A stretch of DNA of 64,000 nucleotides from Clostridia bacterium (GTDB lineage: Bacteria; Bacillota; Clostridia; UMGS1883), in assembly GCA_017505525.1 (NCBI GenBank), contig JAFVPB010000015.1, forward strand, positions 26 through 64,025, read 5' to 3'. Below are positions 1,865-60,593 of the stretch, in pieces. A program made the translations under genes and the position numbers. Position 1 is the stretch's first letter; each line of letters opens with the position of its first letter. A model generated the notes under the pieces. That model saw nothing but the letters and a program-made list of their open reading frames with translations. It was not told the DNA's origin and made no database searches.

Positions 1865-2298
1865 TGCCTTTTTGCGCTCTGGCCGCCTTAAAGGGCGAAG
1901 GAAAAATAGTTCAGAACGGACAAACTGAGTCAAGCGAAGCTTGAGTTACCCGAAGCGACGTCAAAACAAAGCAGACGATGCTCCGTTTTGCTTAAAAGCA
2001 AAACTTACGCACTATGCTTTATTTTTCCTTCTCCCCAAAAAGCATTGTCTGCTTTTCGGGGTCCCCGAAAGTCGCAAGACTTTAAGGGGAAAAGGAGCAA
2101 ACGAGCGATAAGTTTAAGTTTTCCTAAAACTTAAACCTTAGCGAGCCTTGCGACGTGCGAGAGGCGAAGTTTGTTCGTAGCAAAAAGGATTAATAATATG
2201 AAAAAATCTAAAAAACGAGATTTTTCTACCATAATCTGAAAAACCTCATTCTTTCTGCTAATCACGTTTAATATTTTTCCTGCCTTTTTGCGCTCTGG
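1865..2298 (+). repeat. interspersed structured element, copy 1 (long-core variant)
   Basis: Bounded by 18-bp direct repeats TGCCTTTTTGCGCTCTGG (1865-1882 and 2281-2298). It contains the conserved 5' module '...AGTTCAGAACGGACAAACTGAG' and the 3' module 'GAGGCGAAGTTTGTTCGTAGCAAAAAGG-ATTAATAATA-GAAAAAATC..GATTTTTC-..-GCCTTTTTGCG'. Both modules are shared with the copies at 18567 and 31251. Confidence 0.6.
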
Positions 2299-2321
2299 AC
2301 TATTTTAACAAGCCCTTTTTT

Positions 2322-2775: not shown

Positions 2776-5283
2776 ATGATTTCAGATAAAAAAAAGCTTC
2801 TTATAATAGACGGGAACAGTATTGTTAACCGTGCTTACTACGGCGTGCGCCCTCTTTCCACCAAGGCAGGAATTCCCACAAATGCAATATACGGCTTTAT
2901 GAATATTATGCTTAAATATCTTGACGAGTATAATCCCGAGTATTTATGCGTTGCTTTCGATTTAAAAGCTCCCACCTTCAGGCATAAGATGTATGATTTA
3001 TATAAAGCCCAGCGCAAAGGAATGCCCGATGACCTTGCCGCACAGATGCCACATCTTAAAGAGTTGTTGCATTCAATGAATATAATGCAGCTTTCGCTTG
3101 AGGGATATGAAGCAGACGATATTATCGGCACTGTAAGCCGAATTTGCGACGAAAACGGAGTGTGGTGCGGAATTATCACAGGTGATAAAGACGACCTGCA
3201 GCTTGCAAGCGATAATACAAATGTGCTTTTAACCACCACACGTATGGGACAGACCGATACCGTTATATTCGATTGGGACAAGGTTATCGAAAAATATGGC
3301 GTTACCCCAAAAGAGTTTATAAGCGTTAAAGCACTTATGGGCGATTCGAGCGACAATATCCCGGGAGTTAAAGGAATTGGCGAAAAAACTGCTTTCGACC
3401 TGCTTGGTAAATTCCACTCACTTGATAATCTTTATGAAAATATTGAATCAGACGAAATCAAGAAAAGCGCACGCGAAAAGCTTATCGATGGAAAAGACGA
3501 TGCTTTCCTTTGCTACAAGCTTTGCGAGATTGATAAAAACGTACCCATCGAGTTTAAAATTGAAGATGCAGCTTTAAAGGAATATAACCTTTCCGCACTT
3601 TCAGATAAGCTTGAGGAACTGGAATTAAAGAAGATAGCCACACGCCTCGGGGCAGAGCCTGTGGAAAAACAGGCAGTGTATAAAGAGGCAGAGAATGCTG
3701 ATGAGAATATCATTAAAAGCTTCTCGGCCGACGAGCTTTATTTCCTGCCCGATGGTGATTATGTTACTTTTTTATGCGGAGAAAACGCTTACAAGGCAAA
3801 CATCACAGATTTAAAGCATCTTTTTGAAGATGAAAAAATCAAGAAAATAACCCATAAATATAAGGATATGTGCCACAAGCTTTCTTCCCTTTCAATAGAA
3901 ATGAAGGGCGAATTCTACGATACCGAGATTGCCGCATATATAATCGACCCAACTAAAACAGATTACAACATAGAAGAAATGTTTACAGAGCTTTCTTTGT
4001 GTGTTTCGGCTCAATCACTTCCAAAGCTTGTGGAAAATCAGCTTGAAATAATTTCTTCACGCAATCAATCGGAGCTTCTTTACGATATAGAGCTTCCTCT
4101 TTTAAAGGTGCTCTATGAAATGGAATGCTTCGGCTTTAGAATTGACAAAGACGAGCTTTCATCTTTTTCCGTTACGCTTGGAGAAAGAATAAAGTCTCTT
4201 GAAGAATCTATTTATTTTATGGCGGGAGAAGAGTTTAACATTAATTCCACAAAGCAGCTTGGAAAACTGCTTTTTGAGGATATGGGCCTTCCCGTTGTCA
4301 AAAAAACAAAAACAGGCTATTCCACTGATTCGGCAGTGCTTGAAAAACTGAGAGGGAAACACGAAATTATCGATTGTATTATAGAGTACCGCCATCTTGC
4401 AAAATTAAAATCGACCTATACTGATGCGTTTTTACCGCTTCTCGACAGTGAAAACAGAATACACTCCACACTTAAGCAAACTGTTACTCAAACGGGCAGA
4501 ATCAGTTCGGCAGAACCTAATCTGCAAAACATTCCTGTTCGCACTGATATCGGGCGAGAGCTTAGAAAAATGTTTGTTGCAAAAGACGGGTGCGTGCTCG
4601 TGGGTGCCGACTATTCACAGATTGAATTAAGAGTGCTTTCGCATATGTCGGGCGATGAAACAATGTGCGACGCTTTTATAAACGACAAGGATATTCACAC
4701 GATAACGGCATCGCAGGTTTTTAATGTTCCCGATTTTCTTGTAACCGATGATATGCGTTCGAGAGCGAAAACGGTAAACTTCGGCATTATCTACGGACAA
4801 AGCGAATTCTCGCTTGCGGGCGAGCTTAAAATAACGCGCAAAGAAGCCGCGGCGTATATAAACGGCTATTTTGAAAAGTACAGTGGCGTAAAGGAATATA
4901 TGGATAAAACCATAGAAAACGCAAAAAAAGATGGTTTTGTTACCACGCTGTTTAACCGCCGTCGCTATATTCCCGAGCTTAGCGCAAAAAATTTTAACCT
5001 GCGCTCGTTTGGCGAACGCGCCGCAATGAACACTCCCATTCAGGGAAGCGCGGCAGATATTATTAAAATGGCAATGGTAAAGGTGCACGATGCACTTAAA
5101 AAAGAGTGTCCTTCTGCCCGCCTTATACTGCAGATACACGACGAATTAATTGTTGAAGTACCCGAAGCCGACAGTAATCTTGCTGCAGAAGTTCTGAAAA
5201 GGGAAATGGAAAATGCAGCAAAATTATCTGTTCCGCTTATAGCAGATGTTAAAATCGGAAAAAGCTGGTACGAAACGAAGTAA
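2776..5283 (+). CDS. polA: DNA polymerase I
   Basis: An N-terminal 5'-3' exonuclease domain ('LLIIDGNSIVNRAYYG') is followed by a family-A polymerase domain ('ADYSQIELRVLSHMSGDE', 'QIHDELIVE'). The start is moved to the ATG at 2776, which follows a GGAGGA RBS. Confidence 0.92.
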   Translation: MISDKKKLLIIDGNSIVNRAYYGVRPLSTKAGIPTNAIYGFMNIMLKYLDEYNPEYLCVAFDLKAPTFRHKMYDLYKAQRKGMPDDLAAQMPHLKELLHSMNIMQLSLEGYEADDIIGTVSRICDENGVWCGIITGDKDDLQLASDNTNVLLTTTRMGQTDTVIFDWDKVIEKYGVTPKEFISVKALMGDSSDNIPGVKGIGEKTAFDLLGKFHSLDNLYENIESDEIKKSAREKLIDGKDDAFLCYKLCEIDKNVPIEFKIEDAALKEYNLSALSDKLEELELKKIATRLGAEPVEKQAVYKEAENADENIIKSFSADELYFLPDGDYVTFLCGENAYKANITDLKHLFEDEKIKKITHKYKDMCHKLSSLSIEMKGEFYDTEIAAYIIDPTKTDYNIEEMFTELSLCVSAQSLPKLVENQLEIISSRNQSELLYDIELPLLKVLYEMECFGFRIDKDELSSFSVTLGERIKSLEESIYFMAGEEFNINSTKQLGKLLFEDMGLPVVKKTKTGYSTDSAVLEKLRGKHEIIDCIIEYRHLAKLKSTYTDAFLPLLDSENRIHSTLKQTVTQTGRISSAEPNLQNIPVRTDIGRELRKMFVAKDGCVLVGADYSQIELRVLSHMSGDETMCDAFINDKDIHTITASQVFNVPDFLVTDDMRSRAKTVNFGIIYGQSEFSLAGELKITRKEAAAYINGYFEKYSGVKEYMDKTIENAKKDGFVTTLFNRRRYIPELSAKNFNLRSFGERAAMNTPIQGSAADIIKMAMVKVHDALKKECPSARLILQIHDELIVEVPEADSNLAAEVLKREMENAAKLSVPLIADVKIGKSWYETK

Positions 5284-7833: not shown

Positions 7834-8565
7834 TCAGGCTCTCGCTTTATTTACTATCTTGTAAATAATCCAGTAGAGTGAGTTTTGTTCCATCTTTGCT
7901 TTTGTAAGAGCCTCAAGGGCTCTTTTTTCGTCTGTTATTTCAATTTTTATTTTGGGATTATTCATTAAATCCCATAAAATATCGTTTGGCGTTTCTATAG
8001 TTTTTTGGGGTTCTTCCCTTAAAAGCGGCAGCAAATTCTTCTCGAAAGCCTTTCTGGTGTTCCCGCCAAAGAAATTCACACCGGGGCAGGTTTTAAGAGA
8101 AGTTTTTTTATTATAGTCTCCTATAAATCCCGCCGAAGAATACCATGCGTGATAGACAACTGCGCTTTCAGGTACAAGCTTGCACTTTTTTAAAAGCGCT
8201 TTCATCACACTCACTATTGTATTTTTTTGTTCTGTGGGCATAGTTTCAGCATCAAAATTTCCAAGGCATTCAATACATATTGCCCCCGTGTTGGCATTTG
8301 TTATGCCTGCAGGCTTAATATTTAAATCACGCCCCGAAACAACTGTTCCATCGGGAAATATCGTTAAATTCTGCGCAATGTCGCTGAATCCTCTTGATTT
8401 CACATGGTAATTTTTCATTCCCTGCTGAAGTGCCATATGATTATTTACTGAAAATGATTTTATATTTGGACTGTATGTGTGATGAAGCTGAATTTTTGTA
8501 ATTTTCCTTTTAAAATTAAAAGCATCTATGTATTTTACATATTCTTCTGCCGTATATTTTTTCAT
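7834..8565 (-). CDS. phage endolysin, N-acetylmuramoyl-L-alanine amidase (amidase_2/PGRP-type)
   Basis: Amidase_2 features ('IQLHHTYSP', 'ICIECLGNF', 'VYHAWY') sitting next to a holin gene. Confidence 0.7.
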   Translation of the reverse strand: MKKYTAEEYVKYIDAFNFKRKITKIQLHHTYSPNIKSFSVNNHMALQQGMKNYHVKSRGFSDIAQNLTIFPDGTVVSGRDLNIKPAGITNANTGAICIECLGNFDAETMPTEQKNTIVSVMKALLKKCKLVPESAVVYHAWYSSAGFIGDYNKKTSLKTCPGVNFFGGNTRKAFEKNLLPLLREEPQKTIETPNDILWDLMNNPKIKIEITDEKRALEALTKAKMEQNSLYWIIYKIVNKARA

Positions 8566-18147: not shown

Positions 18148-18411
18148 TTAAATCTTTCTGGCTTCAGCTTCGGCAAAAAATTCGCTTGATTTGTTATCCA
18201 TAAGTCTTGCTGTTTTAATATCCTGTCGCATTGAATTTTCTAAAACATCGGCAAACTTCTTTTTGATTTTAACCTTCTTGCCTCTCTGAATAACACAGCT
18301 TTCCCCGTTTACTGCCACAAATACATTATCCTTATAATCCTTGTTATCCCTGAAAAGCTCTATTTCGACCAAAGCTTCCTTTTCTTTTGATTTCATATTT
18401 TTTGCTGCCAT
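18148..18411 (-). CDS. hypothetical phage protein (head-associated?)
   Basis: 87 aa, immediately downstream of the major capsid gene, with an 'aggaaagga' RBS. Confidence 0.35.
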   Translation of the reverse strand: MAAKNMKSKEKEALVEIELFRDNKDYKDNVFVAVNGESCVIQRGKKVKIKKKFADVLENSMRQDIKTARLMDNKSSEFFAEAEARKI

Positions 18412-18566
18412 TTTTTACATCCTTTCCTGTTTTTACTTTCCCTTAGTTTTTTTGCAGGGGCGGACACCCTCACATTTCCGCAAAATACAGATCCCACGGG
18501 CGGATGTAGGCATCCGCCCCTACAATTAATAATTAAATCAGTTTTTACTGAAAAATATTTTTAAAG

Positions 18567-18830
18567 TTCCAAGTGATTTAAACATCCTCTTACCAGAAGA
18601 GGATAGGAGAAATTGCTTGAAACGGACAAACTGAGCCAAGCTATGCTTGGGTTACCCGAAGGCGTACACAGGTACGCCGAGAGGCGAAGTTTGTTCGTAG
18701 CAAAAGGCTTAATAATAAAGAAAAATCGAATTCAGTGAGATTTTTCAACCAAAACACAATGTTTCATTACTTTGCGCTTATTTCTTTATATCTATCTTTG
18801 CCTTTTGCGTTCCAAGTAATTTAAACATCC
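18567..18830 (+). repeat. interspersed structured element, copy 2
   Basis: Flanked by 21-bp direct repeats 'TTCCAAGTRATTTAAACATCC' (18567-18587 and 18810-18830). It carries the 5' module 'ATAGGAGAAATTGCTTGAAACGGACAAACTGAG' and the 3' module 'GAGGCGAAGTTTGTTCGTAGCAAAAGGCTTAATAATA...GAAAAATCG..GATTTTTC...GCCTTTTGCG'. Confidence 0.6.
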
Positions 18831-18832
18831 CC

Positions 18833-20179
18833 TTACCCAAATGTGCTTGCTGTTTCTACCCTTACCATGTATGGTTCAACAAGTCTAACCGTTGCTTTTG
18901 TAGCCTTCCAGCCTGCTGTTGCACGCTGATTGAGCGGGTCAGCAGTTCCTGCTGAGCCAAGCTGCTTGATTATATGTGTGAGGCCACCGCCCACAATTTC
19001 TGTTGTGCCATAAGCATTTTCACCGAAAATAAGTGTTGAATAAACATCTCTGCCCTTGTATCCTGCTTCACCGGGGTAAATAACCATTCCTGCTGAAATT
19101 GTATTTTTGGGTGCCTTTGCAAGATAAAGAGCCTTTTTATCTGCATCGATACCTGAAATTTCAAGCACTTCGGCATCACTTTCAGAATAGATAATCTGAA
19201 TTTTTCCGCCTGCAAGTCGCTCTGCATCTTCCAGAGTAATTTCTTCCTTAATTTTTAATTCAAATGTTGATGATGTTCCGCAGCCCTCTGCAAGTGTTGG
19301 GTTGCTATCGAGAACACTGTAGGAAGAAGCTGTAAGTTCACGCGACTGCGCACAAAGATCTTCTGCATGGAAAACCTTCGCTTCACTTGATTCCACAAAG
19401 CGAACATTTTCAATCTTACCGATTTCGCCCTGATAAATACCCTCGGGATCGGAATATGTTTTAACGTTAATCCACTTGGGATCACTCATAAGGTCGTATG
19501 CTGTATCAGGGTGAATAATACCCACATAGCTGCCATCGATAGTTTCGGCACTCATCTTCTTAAGATAGCGCACTGCCTTTCTGACAGCGTCGACCGTAAG
19601 ATAGTGATTTCCGCTTTCTTCTCCTCCGTTTAAAAGTCCTCTTTCATCAACCTGACCTTCGCTGTACTGCACATTTGTACCGCCTGAAAGCACCTCACGG
19701 GTGATTGTATCAAGAGTTCTTCCCGCCTGACCACCAAGAAGCTTTGTAGCCTGTACAAGATTGTTGTCAACTGCAGTAAGCATAAGCATATCTGAAAGCT
19801 CAATAAATCCACCATACTGCTTAACATCTGCAGAAACAACGCCCATATCAAGCTTCTGTCCTGATGGGGTAACGCCCTCTGCAAGAGGTGTTGTCATTTT
19901 GGGAAGCGGGTCGTACTTTCTGAATTCTATTGTCTTACCGTTTCCCTTCGGAATAGGGCACTTCTGTCCAAACTGGTCATGGACAAGTTTAGGCTCTGCC
20001 ATGTCAATAAGATAATCCGAGTAATATGTTCTCATTTCCGCACTTAATCCACCGTTTTCACCGTAAGGAGTGAATGCGCCTGTTGTATTATTAGCAATAC
20101 CTGCCGTTGTGTTTACAGTGTCGCCTGCAGCAAAAAGCTGCAAGTCAATAATTCTTTCTGTCTGTTTCAAATTTTTCAT
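18833..20179 (-). CDS. phage major capsid protein
   Basis: 448 aa in the canonical position downstream of portal and scaffold. The N-terminus 'IIDLQLFAAGD' resembles the L27/Prp cleavage motif. Confidence 0.7.
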   Translation of the reverse strand: MKNLKQTERIIDLQLFAAGDTVNTTAGIANNTTGAFTPYGENGGLSAEMRTYYSDYLIDMAEPKLVHDQFGQKCPIPKGNGKTIEFRKYDPLPKMTTPLAEGVTPSGQKLDMGVVSADVKQYGGFIELSDMLMLTAVDNNLVQATKLLGGQAGRTLDTITREVLSGGTNVQYSEGQVDERGLLNGGEESGNHYLTVDAVRKAVRYLKKMSAETIDGSYVGIIHPDTAYDLMSDPKWINVKTYSDPEGIYQGEIGKIENVRFVESSEAKVFHAEDLCAQSRELTASSYSVLDSNPTLAEGCGTSSTFELKIKEEITLEDAERLAGGKIQIIYSESDAEVLEISGIDADKKALYLAKAPKNTISAGMVIYPGEAGYKGRDVYSTLIFGENAYGTTEIVGGGLTHIIKQLGSAGTADPLNQRATAGWKATKATVRLVEPYMVRVETASTFG

Positions 20180-20197: not shown

Positions 20198-21028
20198 TCA
20201 GAAGCTTATTTTTTCGCCTCTTGCCGCACGTTTTGCAATCTCTTTGCGGTCTTTTTTGCTAAGCCTTGAAATATTATTTTCGAAAATCATTCCGCTTGTA
20301 GAGCGCGAGCCGTTTTCAATGGGGCGCACTCCCTTAGATCTGATTGAATCCACAATTTTCTTCTCAGCGTTTTTTGCATTCTTTTCAAGAAGCGTATCCA
20401 TATTTGTAACTTCGTAGGCATGCTTTACGCTTACTCCCACCCTGATAAGGCGTACAAATTCAGGATTTTTAAGCTGCTCTTTAAAATCGAAATCGCTGTA
20501 TTCCTTTTTTGTTTCTTCAACCTCAGCGCGAAGCTTTTCTGCTCTGGCCTTCGACTTTTCGTCTCTTTCGCTGTTCTCTCTCATCTTCTTAAGATAAGCG
20601 TTCTCTGCAATCAGTCTCCTGATAATGTCTTCGTATTTGTTTTCATTGTTGTTTTTGGTGTTTTCCATCTCGCCTGTTATCTCCTTTTCAAGCTTTTGTG
20701 CATTGTTATCATCAATGTTGTACTTTTTCATAAGCAAGTTTATGATATGTTCGTTTTTGTCGAGAGTTTCTTTCAACTTTTTCACCTCCTTGAATCTGCG
20801 GTCGATAATTTTTTGCACTCTTTGAGCAAATTGATTTTTAAATTTGCCGCTTATAAGCTTTTCAAACTCCGCATTTTTTTCTTTTTCGCTTTCGGCGTCA
20901 AAGCCTTCTTTTTCTTCGCCCGTATGCAGTTTGCCTGTTTCTGCAGTTTTTTCGGCATCTATACCTTCCCTTTGCTGCGCGCTTTGCTCGGGGATTGCAT
21001 GCTTTTGTTCTTTTTTCTTCATTGTCAT
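20198..21028 (-). CDS. phage scaffolding protein
   Basis: Highly charged, alpha-helical, coiled-coil-like 276-aa protein lying between the portal/Prp genes and the capsid gene. Confidence 0.55.
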   Translation of the reverse strand: MTMKKKEQKHAIPEQSAQQREGIDAEKTAETGKLHTGEEKEGFDAESEKEKNAEFEKLISGKFKNQFAQRVQKIIDRRFKEVKKLKETLDKNEHIINLLMKKYNIDDNNAQKLEKEITGEMENTKNNNENKYEDIIRRLIAENAYLKKMRENSERDEKSKARAEKLRAEVEETKKEYSDFDFKEQLKNPEFVRLIRVGVSVKHAYEVTNMDTLLEKNAKNAEKKIVDSIRSKGVRPIENGSRSTSGMIFENNISRLSKKDRKEIAKRAARGEKISF

Positions 21029-21339
21029 CTTTTCCTCTCAGTTTTAACTATCTTAATGTTTTCGGGAAATTGTCTTGCAAGCATCGTGAATCCTTCAAGC
21101 GCCATTTTATATGCTCCTCGGCATTCACGCCCTCCTGAAAAGCTGATTTCTCCAAGCCCTTTCTGGGTATTTGTTTCAAGCGAAGTAACAAGGGCATCCT
21201 TTTCCGCTGCTGCCACTAAGGAATAGTATAAAATACTCACAGCACTGCAAAGAATATCTTCTCCCTTTGAATACATAGCGTGCCCTTTTATATTTACCTT
21301 AAAATTATTTGCCCTTTTAACTGCCTGAATTTCTATCAT
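21025..21339 (-). CDS. Prp-like cysteine protease (ribosomal-processing protease family, DUF464), phage-encoded
   Basis: 'KGHAMYSKGEDILCSAVSIL' matches the Prp His/Cys catalytic dyad region 'GHAGY..G.DIVCAAVS'. It is 104 aa, the typical Prp size. Confidence 0.65.
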   Translation of the reverse strand: MIEIQAVKRANNFKVNIKGHAMYSKGEDILCSAVSILYYSLVAAAEKDALVTSLETNTQKGLGEISFSGGRECRGAYKMALEGFTMLARQFPENIKIVKTERKR

Positions 21340-22961
21340 ATTGCTTCCTCTCTTTCGGCTATCTGTATGTCTCGTATCTTTGCTTCTATGCCCGCTTTGC
21401 CCTCAAAATCCATAAGCTCAAGAGCGCAAAGTGCCTGTTCTTTATATTCAGGATTAAAAAAACCAAGACCAAAAAGCTCCTTTGCCATTTCGTTTTGCGA
21501 TAGCCTGCTGTATGGACTTTTCTTTTGAGCTTTCACACTGATATCAAAAACAGGTTTTCTGAAATATTCATCAGATTCTCCCTGCCCCTTAAGTTTTTCA
21601 TTACTGTAATCTGAAAACGTGTATTCACCTGAACTGTCTGCAATTCTGAAAGAGCGAAGCTCATCGTAAAACTGACGGATAAGCTCTATACAAAGGTAAT
21701 TTATCTTTGAAAATGCCCTGTAGGTAGATTTAAGCATATCTCTGCTTGTTTTACTTCCTGCCTCCTGAAGTGCAGCAATTGCAGATGCTGCCGTTACTCC
21801 GCCCTGGGTTGTTCCGCGTGAAACATCATTGTTCGAGCTTGTTTCCTTAAGTTCTTCAATTTTCATTTGAAGAATACTTATGCAAGATTGCGGCACCTGT
21901 GAAATCTGAATTTGGCGCAGTCTTTCTTCGTTTATATCACCCTCAACGTGAACAATCGGTTTTCTCCAATCGAGAAATTCCCCTTCGTTTATTCCTGCAC
22001 TCACCTTTGCAAAATACCTCGGTTTGGCACACATTATTGCGTTTTCAAGTATCGCCTGATTAAGCTTATCTATATACATCTGCGGATTTTTCGTTACTGC
22101 AATGAATCCAAATCCCGTGGGCGTACCCTCCTCGGGAAAAAGGGTATCGAAAATTATTGGGTATTCCCCATGGTCGTACCAGCCTTTTTCCTCGTATTCT
22201 TTATGATTTTCCGATGCAAATAAAACAGTATCTCCCACAAACTTGCAGTAATGAAGATTAACTCTGCCATTCTTTTTCACTTTATAGTACCAGTCCACAA
22301 TAGGGATTTTGTCTGCTATGTCCACATTATCATCGTATATGTACTGTTTAACATCAATTGTGCCTCCGTCCAACTTTCCGCGGAGCACCGGATATTCTTT
22401 TTCAAGCACATCTCCATCACACAAATCCACAATAAACAGATTACGGCTTTTCTGAATATCAGTAACACCCGGCTCCCAGAAAATATTTAGTAAATCAAGC
22501 TTTTTAATCTGTATATCACCAAGACCATTTTCAAGCTCACTGTTCCAGAAAACTCCCATAGCACTCGTTCCGTGCTTAAGCTTGTACCACCAGCAATCGG
22601 AATAAATATCCTCGTAATTGTTGTGCTCAAGAATGCACGGAAGAATACCCGACAGCCGCTTTGCTTCCTCGTAATCGTTTTTTTCCCTTGGAAGAATACT
22701 TGCCTCAGGGAAATTATCCATGGCATCGGCGTGCTTATTGATAAGCGAATTAAAAAGCCACGCACTGACGGCTTCTCCCTGCCCTGAATCTTTACGCGAG
22801 GAGTCCATTTCCCTATGGCGAAGTTTCCACCACTGTTCGTCCTCAACTATTCTCTCTTCGAGGCTTGTTTTGGCTTCTTTATATTTCTTAAGCTTTATTG
22901 CCGCCTCTTTAACTTCTTCTTTTCCTATTTTTTTATGGAAAACACTTTCTTTCTGCTTCAC
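21336..22961 (-). CDS. phage portal protein
   Basis: 541 aa between the terminase and the scaffold/capsid genes, which is the canonical gene order. Confidence 0.65.
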   Translation of the reverse strand: MKQKESVFHKKIGKEEVKEAAIKLKKYKEAKTSLEERIVEDEQWWKLRHREMDSSRKDSGQGEAVSAWLFNSLINKHADAMDNFPEASILPREKNDYEEAKRLSGILPCILEHNNYEDIYSDCWWYKLKHGTSAMGVFWNSELENGLGDIQIKKLDLLNIFWEPGVTDIQKSRNLFIVDLCDGDVLEKEYPVLRGKLDGGTIDVKQYIYDDNVDIADKIPIVDWYYKVKKNGRVNLHYCKFVGDTVLFASENHKEYEEKGWYDHGEYPIIFDTLFPEEGTPTGFGFIAVTKNPQMYIDKLNQAILENAIMCAKPRYFAKVSAGINEGEFLDWRKPIVHVEGDINEERLRQIQISQVPQSCISILQMKIEELKETSSNNDVSRGTTQGGVTAASAIAALQEAGSKTSRDMLKSTYRAFSKINYLCIELIRQFYDELRSFRIADSSGEYTFSDYSNEKLKGQGESDEYFRKPVFDISVKAQKKSPYSRLSQNEMAKELFGLGFFNPEYKEQALCALELMDFEGKAGIEAKIRDIQIAEREEAI

Positions 22962-23523: not shown

Positions 23524-24954
23524 CTACCTTATTATTGTTTTTCCGTATTGTGCGTATTCTTCTGTGTTAAGAGGGTTGTAGATTACCTGAGGTGCTTTTA
23601 CCGGTGGCGGATTGATGGGATTTTCCATTGCAACATATCTTACTTCGTCATAGATATGGTCTTCTGCCTGAGTATCGATATCTTCAACATCGCTTGCACT
23701 ATACACAAGGGCGGGAATAGTCCTTATAAAATTCTTGCAGGTAGAAAAAACATAAAGCATCGGAATCCCGCGTTCGTCAAACGCAAGACGGTTATGCAGC
23801 TGCATTTTTCCCGCCATTCGGGTGTTATCGGCTTTTTCAAAATAAACTCCTGCCCTCTCCATCATTGATGCCACACTCTCCCCACGGCTTTCATCAAAAA
23901 TTGATGGATCGGCAATTCCCGTAACGTAACGTCCTTTAAGATTAATGTCTTCTTTTTCCACCCTTGATATATTTTTTGCTATTTCCAATGGTTCCCATCG
24001 CACCCCCTCGTTGGGAGTTCCCGTGCAGCCGTAAAGTTCCCTTATCCGATACATTCTTCCATCGTGGTCAACCGCATACCAACCCACAGAAAACGGTCTT
24101 GAATAGCCAAAGTCAAATCCGCGGTATATTTTCCACGAAGCCGGTACCCGAAATGGCTCTATCACGTGAGTATCAATATGCGTTTTATAGCCATCGGGAT
24201 TATTCTTCCACTCTGTAAAAACCTGACCCGAAAAGCTGTCCCAGTCTCCGTATAAAAGAGCTTTTCTTTCATTTTCAGGAAGAGAAGCCAGCCTCGTTAT
24301 ATATTCAGGGTCGTTACGAAGAAGAATTTTATTATCAAACACGCTCGACGGCACAAATATTCTTGATCTCTGCCTTTTCTCGCTGTGTCCGTCGGGAAAT
24401 ATTATATTAATATCCTCGTAAATTGTTGTCATTGGCGGTGCAGGAGTTATAAATCTCTCCTTTACCCAGCCGTGGCCAACTCCTCCGGGGTTTGCCTGTG
24501 CCCTTATATAGCACCTTGTACCGGGACCGTTTGGTCTGTTACGACTGAAAAGATAACTGTATTCATCCCAGGTAAAGTGTGTAAGCTCGTCAAAATCTAT
24601 AAAGTCGTACCTTTTTCCCTGATAGTTTGTTCTGTCTTTGGTGTGTTGCATTGCCCCAAAATATATTTTTGCTCCGCTTTTAAATGTCCAACAGTGCTTT
24701 TGTTCATTATATTTCGCATCGGGAAATGCACTTTTATAAATCTCGCGACTCCTGTCGATTAATTCTGAAAGCTGAGGATACGTTTTTCTTAATATTAACC
24801 CCCTGTAGTGAGGGATATTAACCTGTCTTAAGGCTTCTGCTAATGCACAGTCGCTTTTTCCCCCACCGGCGGCGCCACCGTAAAGAGCCTCATTTTCAAA
24901 ACGCTCCATAAAAATCTTTTGCCTTGGCTGAGGCGTCCATATTACGTTTTTCAT
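23524..24954 (-). CDS. phage terminase large subunit
   Basis: Walker A 'LYGGAAGGGKSD' and a C-terminal nuclease region with conserved acidic residues. 476 aa. Confidence 0.85.
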   Translation of the reverse strand: MKNVIWTPQPRQKIFMERFENEALYGGAAGGGKSDCALAEALRQVNIPHYRGLILRKTYPQLSELIDRSREIYKSAFPDAKYNEQKHCWTFKSGAKIYFGAMQHTKDRTNYQGKRYDFIDFDELTHFTWDEYSYLFSRNRPNGPGTRCYIRAQANPGGVGHGWVKERFITPAPPMTTIYEDINIIFPDGHSEKRQRSRIFVPSSVFDNKILLRNDPEYITRLASLPENERKALLYGDWDSFSGQVFTEWKNNPDGYKTHIDTHVIEPFRVPASWKIYRGFDFGYSRPFSVGWYAVDHDGRMYRIRELYGCTGTPNEGVRWEPLEIAKNISRVEKEDINLKGRYVTGIADPSIFDESRGESVASMMERAGVYFEKADNTRMAGKMQLHNRLAFDERGIPMLYVFSTCKNFIRTIPALVYSASDVEDIDTQAEDHIYDEVRYVAMENPINPPPVKAPQVIYNPLNTEEYAQYGKTIIR

Positions 24955-25817: not shown

Positions 25818-26429
25818 ATGAAATTACAAGACAGAATTAAAGAACGTCGCCGCGCACTTGGGCTAACACTTCTTGAGGTAGCAGATGCTCTTGGCGTGAA
25901 AGAAGCCACCGTGCAAAGATACGAAAGCGGAGAAATAAAAAATTTAAAGCTTGAAACAATAAATTCACTTGCAAAGCTTTTCAGATGCTCTCCCTCTTAT
26001 CTTGTGGGGTGGGATTTTGAAGATTCACTTCCTCCCCAGGTCATGGAAATAAAAAACGAAGAAGTGCCTATGGTAGGCGAAATTGCCGCCGGAAAACCCA
26101 TTCTTGCAAATGAATTTGTTGAATACTATTCACCTCTTAAGGATACAGGTGCCGATTTCTGCCTTAAGGTTAAAGGCGATTCTATGATTGGCGCCGGAAT
26201 AACCGATGGTTGTACCGTTTTTATCCACAGGCAGGATATTGTGGAAGACGGTGAAATTGCCGCAGTGCTTATTGATGACGAAGCAACACTTAAAAGGGTG
26301 TATATATCTGAAGATTCTATAACTCTTGTTGCTGAAAATCCCAAATACAAGCCAATGATATATTCAGGCGAGAAATGTAGTGGCATTCGTATTCTGGGCA
26401 AAGCCGTTTCGTTTATGTCTGCCTTATAA
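25818..26429 (+). CDS. phage CI-like repressor (XRE-family HTH + S24 LexA-like peptidase domain)
   Basis: N-terminal HTH 'LGLTLLEVADALGVKEATVQRYESGE' and C-terminal S24 'KVKGDSMIGAGITDGCTVFIHRQ...LKRV' with a Ser/Lys dyad. Confidence 0.8.
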   Translation: MKLQDRIKERRRALGLTLLEVADALGVKEATVQRYESGEIKNLKLETINSLAKLFRCSPSYLVGWDFEDSLPPQVMEIKNEEVPMVGEIAAGKPILANEFVEYYSPLKDTGADFCLKVKGDSMIGAGITDGCTVFIHRQDIVEDGEIAAVLIDDEATLKRVYISEDSITLVAENPKYKPMIYSGEKCSGIRILGKAVSFMSAL

Positions 26430-30914: not shown

Positions 30915-31262
30915 ATGTCATTTAAACGTACCGACAGGATATCCGAAGAAATAAAAAAAGAATTATCAAGTATTATCCGCGATCTTAAAGATCCTCGCAT
31001 CCCTATGATGACGAGTGTTGTAAGCGTTAATGTAACAAACGATCTGCGCTATGCAAAAGCCTATATCAGTGTTATGGGCAGCGACGACGAGAAGAAAGAT
31101 GCTATAAAAGCTCTTTCTTCTGCCGCAGGCTTTATAAGGCGCGAAATCGGCGGAAGAGTTAAGTTAAGATGTGTGCCTGAATTCACCTTTGTGCAGGATA
31201 CTTCTATAGAATATGGCGCGCATATTAACGACCTCTTAAACAAAATTCAAGGGGATGTTTAA
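30915..31262 (+). CDS. rbfA: ribosome-binding factor A
   Basis: 115 aa, 'RISEEIKKELSSIIRDLKDPR', the typical RbfA KH fold. Confidence 0.9.
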   Translation: MSFKRTDRISEEIKKELSSIIRDLKDPRIPMMTSVVSVNVTNDLRYAKAYISVMGSDDEKKDAIKALSSAAGFIRREIGGRVKLRCVPEFTFVQDTSIEYGAHINDLLNKIQGDV

Positions 31263-31493
31263 ATTCTCCAGAACGCAAAAAGGCGAGAATAATCAAAATT
31301 CAGAATGCTTATAAGCCTAAACTGTTTATAATTCGGTTGAAAAATCCAGTTTTTCGATTTTTCTTCGTTTTTAATCCTTTTTGCTACGAACAAACTTCGC
31401 CTTCGAGGTATACCAATACATCTTTGGCTCAGTTTGTCCGTTCTGAACAATTTCTCCTATCCCCTTTTTTTATGGGGATGTTTAAATTCTCCA
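31251..31493 (-). repeat. interspersed structured element, copy 3 (minus orientation)
   Basis: 20-bp direct repeats 'GGGGATGTTTAAATTCTCCA' at 31251-31270 and 31474-31493. The first overlaps the last codons and stop of rbfA. The 5' and 3' modules are the same as in copies 1 and 2 but reverse-complemented. An internal 63-codon ORF (31259-31450) starts with TTG after AGGAGA. Confidence 0.6.
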
Positions 31494-34233: not shown

Positions 34234-34266
34234 TGTAGGGGAGGGTCTCTGTGCCCTCCCGTTTTT
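34234..34266 (+). terminator. rho-independent terminator after ribF (member of a repeated terminator sequence)
   Basis: GGGAGGGtctctgtgCCCTCCC followed by GTTTTT. Near-identical 32 bp recur at 43464-43497. Confidence 0.6.
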
Positions 34267-40317: not shown

Positions 40318-40447
40318 ATTATCACTCCTCTACTTTAGTATATGCATTCTCCCTGAAATCGCCCCTGATTTGACAAAAATGCTGTATTGCTGTATAATAC
40401 AGTGTGAATTTTCAAAATTTTTATATGGAGATTATTTTATGAAAAAA

Positions 40448-41842
40448 TTTATATCATTAACCCTTGCGGTTTTACTTGTGCTTTTAAGTTTTCAAAGCGC
40501 ATTTGCCGCGCCAAGAATTCCCGTGTATAAAGTTGGGAATGTTTTATACTTTTTCGATAAATCATCGGGAACAATCACTGGCTTTGCGGGAGAGCCGAAA
40601 GACCTTATTATCCCTACAGAACTTAACGGACATAAGGTAGTTTCAATCGGAACGGGAGCATTTTCATCCTGTCCAACGCTTTCAACGCTTTCAATTCCCT
40701 ATGGCGTATGCTCGATTTCTGCAAATGCGTTTTCGGGATGCACCAATCTTATGTCTGTTGAGATAGGGGCCACTGTTTCGTTTATAGGCGATAGCGCTTT
40801 CAGGGATTGTACATCTCTTTCACGCGTAACATTTTTAGGCTTGCTTGATAACATTGAATCAAATGCTTTTTACAACACTCCGTGGATTACAAATTCCACC
40901 GATGAATTTGTAATGCTTGGCGGAACAACACTTATTAAATACAACGGAACAAGTGAAAGAGTTGTTGTGCCCGCGGGCGTAAAAAAAATTGAAGCTAATG
41001 CCTTCAGCTGGAACCCCTCTATTAAAGAGGTTGTTCTCCCTTATGGCTTGCAGAAAATAGGCGACAATGCCTTTGTGCACTGCTACAGTCTTGAAAAAAT
41101 AGAAATTCCGTCTACCGTTGCATATATCGGCACAGGTGCCTTTGACGATACAATATGGCTCAACAATCAGGAGGGCAACTTTATTTGTGTTAACGGTATA
41201 CTTATTGCCTACCGCGGAAATGATAAAAGCGTAATAATTCCTGATGGCATAACGGGTATTGGAAGCGGTGCCTTTATGTCGAATGAAAGTCTTATGTGTG
41301 TTACCGTTCCTGAAAGTGTTCTATATATTGATACCCTTGCATTTTCAGGATGTTCAAACCTTATCTGTGCTAATATTTCCCATTCTGTAGAATGGATTGA
41401 CGAATATGCTTTTTCGGGATGCACCAAGCTTTCTCTCTGTGTAACAGAGGGCACCTATGGCGAAAATTACGCCCAGAGTATGGAAATAATCATAAGCCGT
41501 CCTGTCCCTGCATATTACAACTGGAATCAGGTTATTTTCGACGGAGTCTATCCTCTTCTCCTGAATGGAACAGCTTATATTCCTCTTCGTGCCGTTTTAG
41601 AGGATTTGGGCTACACCGTTTTGTGGGATAATATATCAAAAAGCACTAAATGTGTTAAAGGAGATTATTATTTTATAATAGAGCAGAGCGGTAGAGTGCT
41701 TATCAATTCACAAATTGCATGGTTCACAGCGGAACCAATCAATATAAAAGGAAAAACGCTCTATCCGTCAAACATTGTGAGTCTTCTTACGGGAAACACT
41801 ATAGAATGGAACGAGCAGTCAAAGAGTATTATGATATATTAA
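40448..41842 (+). CDS. secreted BspA-type leucine-rich-repeat protein with C-terminal copper-amine-oxidase N-terminal-like (stalk) domain
   Basis: Signal peptide 'LLVLLSFQSAFA', 8-9 BspA-like LRR units ('IGDSAFRDCTSL', 'IEANAFSW...') and a C-terminal 'YIPLRAVLEDLGYTVLWDNISKS'. The start is the ATG at 40448 after a GGAG RBS. Confidence 0.65.
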   Translation, partial: FISLTLAVLLVLLSFQSAFAAPRIPVYKVGNVLYFFDKSSGTITGFAGEPKDLIIPTELNGHKVVSIGTGAFSSCPTLSTLSIPYGVCSISANAFSGCTNLMSVEIGATVSFIGDSAFRDCTSLSRVTFLGLLDNIESNAFYNTPWITNSTDEFVMLGGTTLIKYNGTSERVVVPAGVKKIEANAFSWNPSIKEVVLPYGLQKIGDNAFVHCYSLEKIEIPSTVAYIGTGAFDDTIWLNNQEGNFICVNGILIAYRGNDKSVIIPDGITGIGSGAFMSNESLMCVTVPESVLYIDTLAFSGCSNLICANISHSVEWIDEYAFSGCTKLSLCVTEGTYGENYAQSMEIIISRPVPAYYNWNQVIFDGVYPLLLNGTAYIPLRAVLEDLGYTVLWDNISKSTKCVKGDYYFIIEQSGRVLINSQIAWFTAEPINIKGKTLYPSNIVSLLTGNTIEWNEQSKSIMIY

Positions 41843-41941
41843 TGTTTAAATTCTTCATGCCGCAAAAAGGCAGCAGATATAATACTATAAAATTAAAAAG
41901 GGGATGTTTAAGGCATCCCCTTTTTTGTTAAGGAGGCAGTT

Positions 41942-43468
41942 ATGCGTAAGCTATTAAAAATTCTATTCAGCCAGATTGTTATAATCAGTCTTCTTTTAAT
42001 TTTACAAATTGCTCTCATCGTCTACTCTGTTTTAAGGCTTAGCCAGTACTTTATTTATTTTGATTTATTTCTTAAGCTTATAAGCTTAATTGTCGTTATA
42101 TTTATCATGAATCGCCACTCCAATCCTATTTATAAGCTTGCGTGGGTTGTTCCTATAGTAAGTTTCCCACTTCTGGGAGGATTTTTCTATCTCTTTATAA
42201 TGGGTCAGCGTCAAACAAAAAATTTCTTTAAAAGACTTTCCACTATTGAAAAGGAAACCACAAAAGATTTTGTGCAGGATAGTAATGTTTTTAACGAAAT
42301 TGCCCAGAATCACCCCGAAAGAAAATCTACTATCACCTATATAAACAAGGTTTCAGGTCTTAATGCCTATCGCCTTGATGAAGCGCAGTATTTTTCTGTG
42401 GGAGAGGAAAAATGGAAAGCACTTCTGTGCGAGCTTGAAAAAGCGGAAAAATATATCTTTCTTGAATATTTTATAATTAAAGACGGCACTATGTGGAAAA
42501 GCATTCTTGAGATATTGAAGCGCAAAGCAAAAGAGGGAATTGATGTGCGCGTTATGTACGATGGAATGGGAAGCATGGAAAACTTTCCTATATCATACCC
42601 TAAAACACTTGAATCCTATGGAATAAAGTGCCGTGTTTTCAGTCCTTTCACGCCTTTTCTTTCTGCCCTTCAGAATAACCGCGATCACAGAAAAATTGCC
42701 GTTATAGACGGAAAAACCGCTTTCACCGGCGGAATAAACCTTTCAGATGAATATGTTAACATTGACTACAAGCACGGCCATTGGAAGGATATGAGCGTAA
42801 TGATTAAAGGCGAGGGTGCGTTCAGTTTTGCCATTATGTTTCTCCAGCTTTGGTCTATGGTAAGCGGTGAAAAGCCTAACCCCGCGCTCTACCGCCCTGA
42901 ATACAGCGCACCGCAAGGCACAGGCTATGTGATGGGTTATGCCGATATACCTCTTGACAAATACCAGACGGGAGAGTTTGTGTATCTTGATATAATCAAC
43001 AAAGCAAAAAAATATGTGTATATAACCACCCCCTATCTTATCCTCGACCACGAAATGGTGGTGGCACTTACAAATGCTGCCCTTTCGGGGATTGATGTTA
43101 AGATAATCTGCCCGCTCGCAGTCGACCACTGGTATGCGCGCGCAGTGGCTTACAGCTATTATAAAGAGCTTATCGAAAGCGGCGTGAAAATATACGAATA
43201 CACCCCCGGCTTTATCCACGGAAAAACTTTCTGCTCCGATGGAGAAATCTGTGTTGTGGGAAGCATCAATCTTGATTACCGAAGCTTATATCTTCATTTT
43301 GAATGTGCTTCTTTGTTTATTGATTCTCCTGTTGTGCAATCAGTCTACAGCGATTTTAAGGAAACACTTAAAAAGTGCCGCCTTATAACCAAGGAAGAAT
43401 GCGACAGTATCCCCCCACACAAAAAGATACTCTATGCAATACTCCGACTATTCGCACCTCTTATGTAG
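41942..43468 (+). CDS. cls: cardiolipin synthase
   Basis: Two N-terminal TM helices and two PLD HKD motifs ('HRKIAVIDG', 'HGKTFCSDGE'). Confidence 0.9.
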   Translation: MRKLLKILFSQIVIISLLLILQIALIVYSVLRLSQYFIYFDLFLKLISLIVVIFIMNRHSNPIYKLAWVVPIVSFPLLGGFFYLFIMGQRQTKNFFKRLSTIEKETTKDFVQDSNVFNEIAQNHPERKSTITYINKVSGLNAYRLDEAQYFSVGEEKWKALLCELEKAEKYIFLEYFIIKDGTMWKSILEILKRKAKEGIDVRVMYDGMGSMENFPISYPKTLESYGIKCRVFSPFTPFLSALQNNRDHRKIAVIDGKTAFTGGINLSDEYVNIDYKHGHWKDMSVMIKGEGAFSFAIMFLQLWSMVSGEKPNPALYRPEYSAPQGTGYVMGYADIPLDKYQTGEFVYLDIINKAKKYVYITTPYLILDHEMVVALTNAALSGIDVKIICPLAVDHWYARAVAYSYYKELIESGVKIYEYTPGFIHGKTFCSDGEICVVGSINLDYRSLYLHFECASLFIDSPVVQSVYSDFKETLKKCRLITKEECDSIPPHKKILYAILRLFAPLM

Positions 43469-43497
43469 GGGAGGGCCTCTGTGCCCTCCCGTTTTTT
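43464..43497 (+). terminator. rho-independent terminator after cls (second copy of repeated terminator)
   Basis: GGGAGGGcctctgtgCCCTCCC followed by GTTTTTT, near-identical to 34234-34266. Confidence 0.6.
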
Positions 43498-54115: not shown

Positions 54116-55327
54116 ATGAAGATATTAAAAAAACTTGCAACCGTTTTTTTTGCAGCTACTGTATCGGCATTAATACTATATGCCGATATTCTTTTTTCAT
54201 TCCCGGCTCAAATCACAATGTACCGTGGGCAAAACCATAGCAAAAATATGGGCTCGGGCGTCTTTATAGGAAGCATATCGTCAGATATGAATGTAAGCAG
54301 TTCGGGAGAAAATGTTACCCCCCTCGAAACAGGAACATACGATGCCACGCTCAGCGCACTAAAAACAATTCCCTTTAAAAGCATAAAAATCAATGTTACT
54401 GAACCAAGCTATCTGTATGCCTCTGGAGAATTAATCGGTCTTCGCATTCACAACAAGGGTCTTATCGTTATAGATACCTCTCCAATTGAAACAAATGACA
54501 ACCTCTCATCCCCCGCTGAAAATGCAGGGCTTGAAGCAGGCGATGTAATTCTTGAAATAAACGGCATTGCTGTGCAAAGTTCAGGCGATGTACCCCTCCT
54601 TTTAAAGACTGGAGAATCTGTTTTAACGGTAAACAGAAACAATCGCATCATAAAATTGAAGATAACCCCCGTAACCGACAAAAACGATTCACGCCCCAAG
54701 CTCGGCGTGTGGGTGCGCGACAGTACGGCAGGCGTAGGCACAATGACGTATTATAACCCCGAAACAAATTCGTTCGGCTCGCTCGGGCACTCTATAAGCG
54801 ACAGTGATACGGGAATTATGTTTGATATTTTAAAGGGCACCATCGAAAAAAGCTATGTTGTTTCTTTAAGAAAAGGTGAAAAAGGAAGTCCCGGTGAAAT
54901 CTGCGGTGGTTTTTCTGGCGGAAATATTGCAGGAAATCTTTTAAAGAACTGCGAAGCAGGTGTTTACGGTGTGCTTACTGAAAACGCCGATATTTCGGGC
55001 ACGCTTCTTCCCACCGCCCCGATGAATCAGGTAAAAACGGGAAAGGCACATATTCTTTCAACCGTTGATTCCTCCATTAAAAAATATGAAATCGAAATTC
55101 TTCGCACAATGCCGTTTGGCTCTGCTGCAAAAGGCTTAGTCATAAAAATTACCGACCCTGATTTACTTAAGAAAACAGGCGGTATAATTCAGGGAATGAG
55201 TGGCAGCCCCATCATCCAGAACGGCAAGCTCATCGGCGCCGTAACCCACGTACTCATTAACGACCCCACGCGCGGCTACGGAATATTTATTGAGAATATG
55301 CTTTCAGAAGCAGAGAAAATTAAATAG
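54116..55327 (+). CDS. spoIVB: stage IV sporulation protein B (SpoIVB S55 serine peptidase)
   Basis: PDZ domain 'GLEAGDVILEINGIAV' and the S55 catalytic region '[26 protein letters not shown]'. Confidence 0.85.
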   Translation: MKILKKLATVFFAATVSALILYADILFSFPAQITMYRGQNHSKNMGSGVFIGSISSDMNVSSSGENVTPLETGTYDATLSALKTIPFKSIKINVTEPSYLYASGELIGLRIHNKGLIVIDTSPIETNDNLSSPAENAGLEAGDVILEINGIAVQSSGDVPLLLKTGESVLTVNRNNRIIKLKITPVTDKNDSRPKLGVWVRDSTAGVGTMTYYNPETNSFGSLGHSISDSDTGIMFDILKGTIEKSYVVSLRKGEKGSPGEICGGFSGGNIAGNLLKNCEAGVYGVLTENADISGTLLPTAPMNQVKTGKAHILSTVDSSIKKYEIEILRTMPFGSAAKGLVIKITDPDLLKKTGGIIQGMSGSPIIQNGKLIGAVTHVLINDPTRGYGIFIENMLSEAEKIK

Positions 55328-55415
55328 GTATCATACCCGCCTGTACAAAGCAGGCGGGTCTTTTATATATTAATATGTAAACTGTGACAAAAACTATTCC
55401 ATTCACAATCTAATA

Positions 55416-59050: not shown

Positions 59051-59057
59051 TCAAATG

Positions 59058-59150
59058 GCAAGCTTATCGGCGCCGTAACGCACGTACTCATCAACGACCC
59101 GACAAGAGGCTATGGGATTTTTATTGAGAATATGCTAAGGGAAGCATCTT
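59058..59150 (+). pseudogene. diverged fragment of the spoIVB 3' end (last ~30 codons)
   Basis: Encodes '[32 protein letters not shown]', about 85% nt identity to 55216-55327. Confidence 0.6.
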
Positions 59151-59207
59151 AAATTCCCATATACAAAGAGGGTGTTTAAAACTTTGTTTTTAAACACCCT
59201 CTTTTCA

Positions 59208-60319: not shown

Positions 60320-60559
60320 TTGCAACACTTTCGTTTTGGGGGCGAGGCAATTTTTGTTGCAAAAGGCTTAGTCATAAAAATTACCGACCCTGATTTACTT
60401 AAGAAAACAGGCGGTATAATTCAGGGAATGAGTGACAGACCCATCATCCAGAACGGCAAGCTCATCGGCGCCGTAACCCACGTACTCATTAACGACCCCA
60501 CGCGCGGATATGGTATTTTTATTGAAAATATGTTAGTGGAAGCGGAGAAAATTAAATAA
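60320..60559 (+). pseudogene. duplicated spoIVB 3' fragment with mutated catalytic serine motif
   Basis: About 95% nt identity to 55125-55327. 'GMSGSP' is changed to 'GMSDRP', and there is no PDZ or N-terminal domain. Confidence 0.7.
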
Positions 60560-60593
60560 TAAAAATGCTCGTCTATTTAATATAGGCGAGCAT

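Follow-up and report, generated by a model that had tools for sequence, protein, structure and literature searches.

Pneumococcal BOX and RUP, the bcr1-bcr18 repeats of Bacillus cereus, enterobacterial ERIC and the Correia repeats of Neisseria contain no open reading frame (ORF), measure 100–400 nt and reach tens of copies per genome. They are found in intergenic regions near gene ends, form stable stem-loops, are modular with optional parts and differ in presence or absence between related genomes; compensatory changes and outward promoters are known for some of them. We count all these features as shared with a repeat element of about 240 nt that we describe here from a 64,000 nt stretch of a Clostridia bacterium genome (contig JAFVPB010000015.1, positions 26 to 64,025; the whole stretch is referred to as the window). 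One of its copies (copy 2) lies in a prophage, between the gene for the major head (capsid) protein and the next late gene, p87. The described repeats are not known to have sequence homology to the element. Unlike them, the element has ends that covary instead of forming a fixed inverted repeat, it lacks a fixed short target duplication, its nearly invariant three-way-junction core is kept across bacterial families, and its placement is strictly polar, with the 3′ end at the stop codon of a convergent gene and a cognate hairpin on the 5′ side.

The element also resembles the REP/REPIN-RAYT and IS200/IS605 systems (including PATE and the TnpB omega-RNA ends). As in these systems, a folded single strand and not the duplex would be recognised, the strands are asymmetric with G-T/G-U pairs, hairpins are lineage-specific and change together, solo hairpins occur beside longer versions, sites are located at gene 3′ ends, the signature of an inverted repeat plus short duplication is missing, and insertions lie beside sequence resembling the element's own 3′ end. 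In contrast to these systems, no gene for a Y1 transposase (TnpA or RAYT) or TnpB was found next to any copy in the 111 loci of the family, and no Rfam match to IS605-orfB or HEARO RNAs was obtained. The element is much larger than a REP, and in operons the strand that folds is usually complementary to the mRNA, unlike the prediction of simple lagging-strand targeting. BOX, bcr, ERIC and Correia repeats and, with regard to mechanism, REPIN/RAYT and IS200/IS605 would thus be the closest known things by analogy, similar in working and not relatives.

Our data favour the view, with a probability of roughly 0.6, that copy 2 is one insertion of an ORF-less, non-autonomous mobile repeat that is indigenous to the host lineage (uncultured Oscillospiraceae/Acutalibacteraceae-type Clostridia), is moved in trans and is carried by the phage as a presumably neutral passenger. 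The initial annotation had placed a repeat copy, oriented opposite to the late genes, in the gap from 18412 to 18832. A covariance model (CM) of the family matched here on the + strand (Table 1), and the capsid and p87 ORFs flank the gap exactly as claimed. The TAA stop codon of the head gene directly abuts the 3′ end of copy 2. The description of the gap as almost entirely element has to be corrected, since the element accounts for 235 of the 421 bases (56%), or 63% together with the 26-nt direct repeat upstream of it. The rest of the gap, about 154 nt (18412-18565), represents the phage leader.

It had been left undecided whether the element is phage-borne or hopped into the phage, and comparison to related phages supports the latter. 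The capsid protein as query retrieved 14 loci from IMG/VR and 24 loci from metagenomes, in which the gene order scaffold-capsid-p87-p369 is conserved. About 25 phage loci with capsid-p87 synteny have element-free gaps of 46–150 nt, and not of 420 nt. For the relatives with a capsid identity of at least 64%, the gaps measure 46 nt (L135, L136), 47 nt (L128), 50 nt (L130), 53 nt (L133), about 55 nt (L115), about 60 nt (L120), about 70 nt (L119), 71 nt (L129), 93 nt (L132), 95 nt (L113, L114, L126), 96 nt (L134), 97 nt (L127) and about 150 nt (L112), and none of them holds the element. Most gaps in the relatives contain a GC-rich hairpin. Without positions 18566-18832 the gap of the window is reduced to about 154 nt, which is at the top of the range of the relatives.

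A distant relative, L131 (74% capsid identity), carries a complete element at the corresponding position, likewise antisense (223 bits). This copy is of a different subtype and has neither a flanking repeat nor a GC hairpin, whose place is taken entirely by the element. Its identity to copy 2 (68%) is not higher than that of randomly chosen family members, and its closest match (84%) is a chromosomal copy, L003. Because of the subtype, the missing repeat and hairpin and the low identity to copy 2, we consider the L131 copy a second, independent insertion. The occurrence in the same slot of two phages could in principle also be expected if the 420-nt spacer were ancestral phage DNA, from which the chromosomal copies are derived. 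This is highly improbable in view of the about 25 related loci without element at this position, which include all the closest relatives, of two phage copies that are each closer to chromosomal copies than to each other, and of a family that is common in chromosomes but hardly represented in viral collections. In two other phages, L115 and L133, a copy in sense orientation precedes the scaffold gene. In L112 a rod-shaped hairpin of 94 nt (4317-4410; −34.4 kcal/mol, z −5.9) follows right after the capsid stop; it has the termini of the element family (GGGGATGTA…TACATCCCC) and an unrelated interior. In L113 (4281-5434), L121 and L142 the capsid frame is split near residues 420-438, near the 3′ end of the gene, by about 1.15 kb or about 0.26 kb, which could be due to insertion of an intron, an intein or a homing endonuclease.

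For the anatomy of the element, the orientation of copy 2 (+ strand) is used throughout. First comes the 5′ arm, GGGGATAGGAAAAAATG-TTCAGAAC, and then P1, in which GGACAAACT pairs with AGTTTGTTC before a tandem G-A motif leads into GCC/GGC. The next parts are P2, an optional hairpin that varies in both sequence and length, the conserved single-stranded segment GTTACCCGAAG and P3, a hairpin GCGTAC-NNNN-GTACGC that is replaced by a nested module of about 190 nt in a subfamily including copy 1. The segment CGAGAGGCGA after P3 is followed by P4 (GCAAAAAGGC paired with GCCTTTTTGC, the P4′ strand), which encloses P5 (A5-stem-U5) and an AT-rich spacer, about 60 nt. The 3′ arm, X (G-GTTCTGGAC-TTTTTTT-ACATCCCC), pairs back to the 5′ arm as P0, a stem of about 24 bp that closes the nearly invariant three-way-junction core. 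For the + strand of copy 2 a minimum free energy of −72.2 kcal/mol (z −6.1) was calculated, and the predicted structure reproduces P0, P1, P2, P3 and P4. The distance between P4 and P4′ is almost fixed (93–115 nt in 92 of 100 measurable copies, 77–115 nt in 94); therefore no version carries an ORF there, and no long insert that would mark an autonomous version was seen between these strands.

Alignments of the family support this fold. In a MAFFT alignment of 71 copies, 89.8% of the cells are standard pairs, compared to 37–50% when the partner columns are slid; 36 of 63 pairs show changes on both sides, and covariation is 0.207 versus at most 0.067 in the slid controls. A model-fitted CM alignment of 111 copies, which leans towards the model, gave 93.3% standard pairs (40–52% with slid partner columns), changes on both sides in 51 of 63 pairs and a covariation of 0.25 (slid controls at most 0.056). 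P1, P3 and P4 were recovered independently by RNAalifold. The P0 sequence is swapped wholesale between lineages (GGGGAT/ATCCCC, GGGC/GCCC, GAGGCTG/CAGCCTC, and CCGCGCG/CGCGCGG in a phage copy). As judged from the sequences, the family is defined by a strand-specific fold and not by fixed terminal sequences. Copy 2 alone cannot settle which strand folds, because the reverse complement, the strand of the late transcript, has a predicted energy of −72.6 kcal/mol (z −5.3). Across the family, G-U pairs clearly exceed A-C combinations (191 versus 50 in P0, 78 versus 2 in P1, 35 versus 2 in P3), and at one position of P1 a G-U pair is present in 65 of 71 sequences. It follows that the + strand of copy 2, antisense to late transcription, is the one that folds.

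The core 19-mer GGCGAAGTTTGTTCGTAGC occurs three times in the window, with 0.03 occurrences expected by chance. A search for it covered species-representative genomes, before the CM was built, and revealed at least 111 stretches, all from metagenome-assembled genomes of Clostridia from ruminant and other guts that are labelled Oscillospiraceae, Acutalibacteraceae or Ruminococcus. Many of these genomes have several copies, and many copies are located at contig ends. The CM detected 111 copies across 742 kb of family loci, including copies without the exact 19-mer, which corresponds to roughly one copy per 20–50 kb. Partial tandem arrangements were seen in L012, L096, L107 and L015; the latter has five copies within 8 kb, two of them in direct tandem with the 3′ end running into the next 5′ arm. 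Blastn in distant mode gave no match to the element in the phage collection, the exact core 19-mer has 0 matches in IMG/VR, and a relaxed two-anchor pattern matched 1 viral contig. The family is thus overwhelmingly chromosomal and rare in viral contigs.

No match at the gathering threshold of Rfam 15 was obtained for the whole window. In E-value mode copies 1 and 2 gave chance-level matches only (12–30 bits, far below gathering), and none to Intron_gpI, Intron_gpII or a group-II domain. Group I and group II introns, including the class C introns that insert behind terminators, were dismissed on these grounds, and 235 nt would be too short for a group II intron. The core sequence and a relevant description were not found in the literature searched. 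With regard to Rfam and this literature, the element represents a previously undescribed, tightly folded repeat family with many copies.

The placement of the copies follows a clear rule. For 58 copies a gene was located no more than 400 nt beyond the 3′ end; in 50 of them this gene is convergent, and 47 of these 50 have its stop codon at −11 to +16 nt relative to the element end (0–9 nt in most copies). In operons the element is antisense in 15 and sense in 4 cases, and the mRNA therefore carries the reverse complement in most of them. This placement is also what would be expected if the functional strand were the mRNA strand of the abutting gene, with the element as a 3′ untranslated region (3′ UTR) module that acts after the stop codon as stabiliser, processing site or attenuator. 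The ribosome at the stop codon might then choose between the pairings A/A′, A′/A* and A*/X, with A and A′ denoting the arms of the hairpin upstream, and A* and X the 5′ and 3′ arms of the element. The four mutually complementary segments covary between lineages, and in a phage such a module would substitute for the post-capsid hairpin. The L131 copy, which replaces the GC hairpin entirely, and the equally stable reverse strand of copy 2 agree with this. On the mRNA strand, however, the conserved G-U pairs of P1 and P0 turn into A-C mismatches, and a simple stem-loop role gives no evident reason for the conservation of the core. We consider this explanation unlikely.

In 13 of 71 cases the copy's own 3′ end is repeated directly (17–37 nt) 0–11 nt upstream of its 5′ end. 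In about 30 further copies TTTTTTACAnCCC is found 3–13 nt upstream; it represents the 3′ strand of an almost perfect hairpin NNNNN-TGTAAAAAA-loop-TTTTTTACA-NNNNN that is followed by a T-run. In total about 43 of 71 copies have variable repeats of 14–37 nt of their own 3′ end upstream. The repeat upstream of copy 2 can also pair with the 5′ arm of this copy, giving a local hairpin CCTCTT-ACCAG-AAGAGG. Of 39 cognate hairpins in 768 kb, 31 lie directly 5′ of an element, which argues against a generic terminator of these genomes, and the hairpin sequence tracks the lineage-specific P0 sequence. Several explanations were discarded. For a crossover inside the upstream hairpin, the hairpin arms should not pair mutually in the same copies in which the element ends pair mutually, as they do. 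A Xer/dif-like site in the end motif would have its arms the wrong way round, and a TA/TTA target duplication is inconsistent across 71 junctions. The 5′ flank consists of the T-run after the cognate hairpin, and no defined tetra- or pentanucleotide target emerged.

Small size, lack of an ORF, many copies and presence or absence at orthologous sites are all as in a miniature inverted-repeat transposable element (MITE). Since the ends covary and a constant target duplication is lacking, the element is not a classical MITE. In our proposal, the folded single strand, be it DNA or RNA, is probably recognised by an enzyme that acts in trans from a gene located elsewhere in the genome. The element then comes to rest in the short non-coding stretch that follows a stop codon, in most cases immediately 3′ of a cognate hairpin or of a repeat of its own 3′ end. 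In the prophage, copy 2 would have landed as a passenger, with the stop codon of the capsid gene on one side and the post-capsid stem-loop of the phage on the other, and late transcription would read it antisense as an extra stable stem-loop at a position where one normally sits.

Several observations weigh against this proposal. No transposase, recombinase or parent element was found in the flanks of the 111 loci and in 768 kb; ORF clustering of the flanks gave no recurrent mobility gene, only housekeeping families (ABC ATPases, AraC regulators, LepA/IF-2, MATE, GyrB), and no insertion sequence with matching ends was present in the 768 kb. The terminal inverted repeat is not conserved in sequence, its ends covary, and no constant short target duplication was found at 71 junctions. 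The proposal does not account for the upstream repeat or hairpin. A relative with an empty site, similar enough to show the exact junction in this phage, was not found; the highest capsid identity in a metagenome scan was 78%. Finally, the core is nearly invariant across bacterial families and the spacer length is fixed. Such constraint exceeds what a purely selfish repeat would require and could reflect a cellular RNA function. A retron non-coding RNA, the ends of which also pair, was excluded, since no reverse transcriptase is encoded in any flank and the element is dispersed in many copies.

In view of the unusually strong constraint on core and spacer length, an independent RNA function, on either strand, is conceivable. 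One such possibility is that the copies are functional non-coding RNA genes expressed from the folding (+) strand, each acting on the abutting convergent gene, either by antisense pairing with its stop-codon region or by an outward promoter in the AT-rich spacer that drives antisense transcription into it; in the phage, capsid expression would be damped or timed. The covarying core with its conserved G-U pair, the fixed spacer length and the 3′ end pointing into the convergent gene are in agreement with this. In addition, a −10-like TATAAT box is about 4-fold enriched 1–6 nt before the P4′ strand (27 of 71 copies), and some copies have TTACA-N16-TATTAT. However, the hairpin with its T-run ends 3–13 nt upstream and leaves no space for a promoter on the 5′ side, no consistent −35 element was found across the copies, and a consensus scan of 18300-18950 revealed no sigma-70-like promoter for copy 2. 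The neighbouring genes are functionally unrelated, and presence or absence at orthologous sites speaks against a locus-specific regulator. RNA genes of this type are thus a rather doubtful explanation, if one to be kept in mind.

The non-coding part of IS110/IS1111 elements encodes structured bridge or seek RNAs, and a structured RNA would likewise be encoded by the element. The outward promoter-like box would be transcribed across the end-to-end junction only if the element were circular or in tandem, and partial tandems do occur in the family. In contrast to IS110/IS1111, no recombinase gene, no guide architecture with two internal loops and no 2-nt core duplication are present, and circular forms were not observed. 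It is an improbable but conceivable view that the family is a new kind of guided mobile element without a gene of its own. The three-way-junction core could then be the handle for a trans-acting recombinase or nuclease, and the variable 5′ arm could select targets by base-pairing to hairpin arms or to copies of the element's own 3′ end. As with the IS110 bridge RNAs, though with another architecture, the complete RNA would arise only when the ends join in a circle or tandem, in the order promoter-like box, P4′, X, A*, core, P4, P5 terminator. If this were true, prophage copies would be both cargo and vehicle for a spreading system.

Returning to copy 2 as a passenger insertion, the sequence between it and p87 shows what the phage itself contributes. 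The slot behind the capsid gene holds a stable stem-loop in most relatives, as is known for the post-capsid stem-loops of tailed phages, and the element adds another one. It differs from these stem-loops as a foreign multi-copy sequence, beside which the phage's own GC-rich stem-loop persists. The initial annotation had listed two GC-rich hairpins following the element. The first is real (GGGCGGATG/CATCCGCCC, 9 bp, −22.5 kcal/mol locally), and the second has a stem of 4 bp only. Both lie inside one larger predicted stem-loop on the late-mRNA strand, with an energy of −43.9 kcal/mol and a GC-rich outer stem of 18 bp (UUGUAGGGGCGGAUGCCU paired with GGGUGUCCGCCCCUGCAA). These hairpins belong to the phage and not to the element, because element-free relatives (L113, L114, L119, L120, L126, L127, L129, L132, L135) have a GC hairpin in the same slot. 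No U-run follows the 9-bp hairpin or the 18-bp stem, and a terminator scan of the gap region gave one weak 5-pair site (18510-18493, − strand) inside the phage's own hairpin. Since the late-transcript strand of copy 2 folds as stably as the + strand, a stem-loop effect of copy 2 on the capsid mRNA is possible according to the fold predictions, with regard to the antisense or attenuator role suggested in the initial annotation. Two other candidates in the gap were rejected. A match to the preQ1-I riboswitch just upstream of the p87 start (18437-18475, − strand; 21 bits, gathering threshold 39, E 0.064) is probably due to chance, because the motif is missing from the leaders of related phages. 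A small peptide starting with the ATG right after the capsid stop (MFKLLGTQKAKIDIKK) is not supported, as the ATG is not kept between copies and is absent from copy 1.

The late genes of the prophage are ordered on the minus strand as terminase, portal, scaffold-like gene, head gene, p87, p369 and internal virion protein, as identified by PHROG profiles, and tblastn synteny shows that p87 stays next to the capsid gene in related phages. Pfam assigned host genes outside the edges of this module, apbE on one side and rimP-nusA-infB-rbfA-truB on the other. The ordered late module, the edge genes and the host genes beyond them identify the region as a small prophage or phage-like element.

Table 1. 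Features of the 64,000 nt window (positions count from its first letter; CM, covariance model)
Feature	Position	Strand	Evidence or remark
Copy 2, full length	18598-18832	+	CM R1 202 bits, E 1.9e-43, model positions 1-245
Copy 2, P0 5′ arm	18598-18623	+	closing stem
Copy 2, P1	18624-18632 with 18688-18696	+	
Copy 2, P2 hairpin	18636-18650	+	
Copy 2, P3 hairpin	18662-18677	+	
Copy 2, P4	18700-18708 with 18800-18808	+	
Copy 2, P5 (A5-stem-U5 hairpin)	18720-18746	+	
Copy 2, AT-rich spacer	18747-18799	+	
Copy 2, 3′ arm of P0 ("X")	18809-18832	+	
Direct repeat upstream of copy 2, GTTCCAAGTGATTTAAACATCCTCTT	18566-18591	+	24/26 identical to 18809-18834, copy 2's own 3′ end
Predicted phage stem-loop	18452-18525	-	contains both GC-rich hairpins
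Copy 1, chromosomal, long form	1891-2315	+	CM matches of 91.6 and 30 bits
Copy 3, chromosomal, without P2	31251-31465	-	CM 165 bits; 20-nt direct repeat at 31474-31493
Partial copy	41842-41912	-	hairpin (GGGGATG..CATCCCC), AT-rich part, P4′ strand, X; core missing
Solo hairpin AGAGGGTGTTTAAAAC-TTTG-TTTTTAAACACCCTCT	59164-59205		between convergent genes; weak CM matches, P0 only
Large terminase	23524-24954	-	PHROG
Portal	21336-22961	-	PHROG
Scaffold-like gene	20198-21028	-	PHROG
Major head (capsid) protein	18833-20179	-	PHROG 1357 (phrog_1357), E 2.3e-81
p87, 87-aa phage protein	18148-18411	-	PHROG 15239 (phrog_15239), E 3.5e-23
p369, 369-aa fibre- or collagen-like protein		-	PHROG; after p87 in late order
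Internal virion protein, 638 aa		-	PHROG; after p369 in late order
Amidase gene	7834-8565		one edge of late module
S24/CI-like repressor gene	25818-26429		other edge of late module

Copy 1 lies between a phosphoribosyltransferase gene and rpmB, with a 17-nt direct repeat upstream (at about 1868-1884). The conserved module nested in its P3 (1955-2155; …CTCCCCAAAAAG…GGGGTCCCCGAAAGTCGCAAGACTTTAAGGGGAAAAGGAG…) also occurs in L016, L032, L045, L081 and L092. The module folds strongly, was found only inside elements and has no Rfam match. For copy 1 a fold of −132.5 kcal/mol (z −7.3) was calculated. The partial copy adjoins the stop codon of the ORF 40370..41842. The solo hairpin is of the type that precedes many elements, but no element follows here.

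Copy 3 is located in the nusA-infB-rbfA-DHH-truB operon, between rbfA and the DHH gene and antisense to the operon. In L068 the element is found between infB and rbfA (1230-1483), again antisense, and in L080 (6512-6880) neither of these gaps, which measure 10–15 nt, holds an element. The host operon thus shows the same pattern of presence and absence as the phages. The rbfA gene of the window (30915-31262) lacks the usual C-terminal tail of its homologues; its last codons and its stop derive from the terminus of copy 3 (31251-31270; GGG GAT GTT TAA, …KIQGDV*). Two other repeats were seen in the window. The 3′ coding end of a SpoIVB-like peptidase gene is present in three copies of 81–89% identity (55123-55363, 59054-59155, 60355-60595), two of which look like gene fragments outside a full ORF. 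A terminator-like sequence of 33 nt, TGTAGGGGAGGG(T/C)CTCTGTGCCCTCCCGTTTTT, occurs twice with 97% identity at unrelated loci (34234-34266, 43464-43496).

Taken together, the element represents an abundant, structurally constrained feature of the genomes of uncultured gut and rumen Clostridia that lies outside Rfam. Covarying ends, an invariant core, a spacer of fixed length, an upstream cognate hairpin and strict placement at the stop codons of convergent genes form a combination that one would not usually expect of a selfish repeat. They point to a trans-acting machinery or an RNA function, which phylogenetic profiling could reveal. For the annotation of phages it follows that long "spacers" behind capsid genes can be host repeats and not regulatory DNA of the phage. 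Our data show that such repeats can ride on phages; they entered prophages repeatedly, twice in the same post-capsid slot, and carriage by prophages thus provides a concrete route for their horizontal spread.

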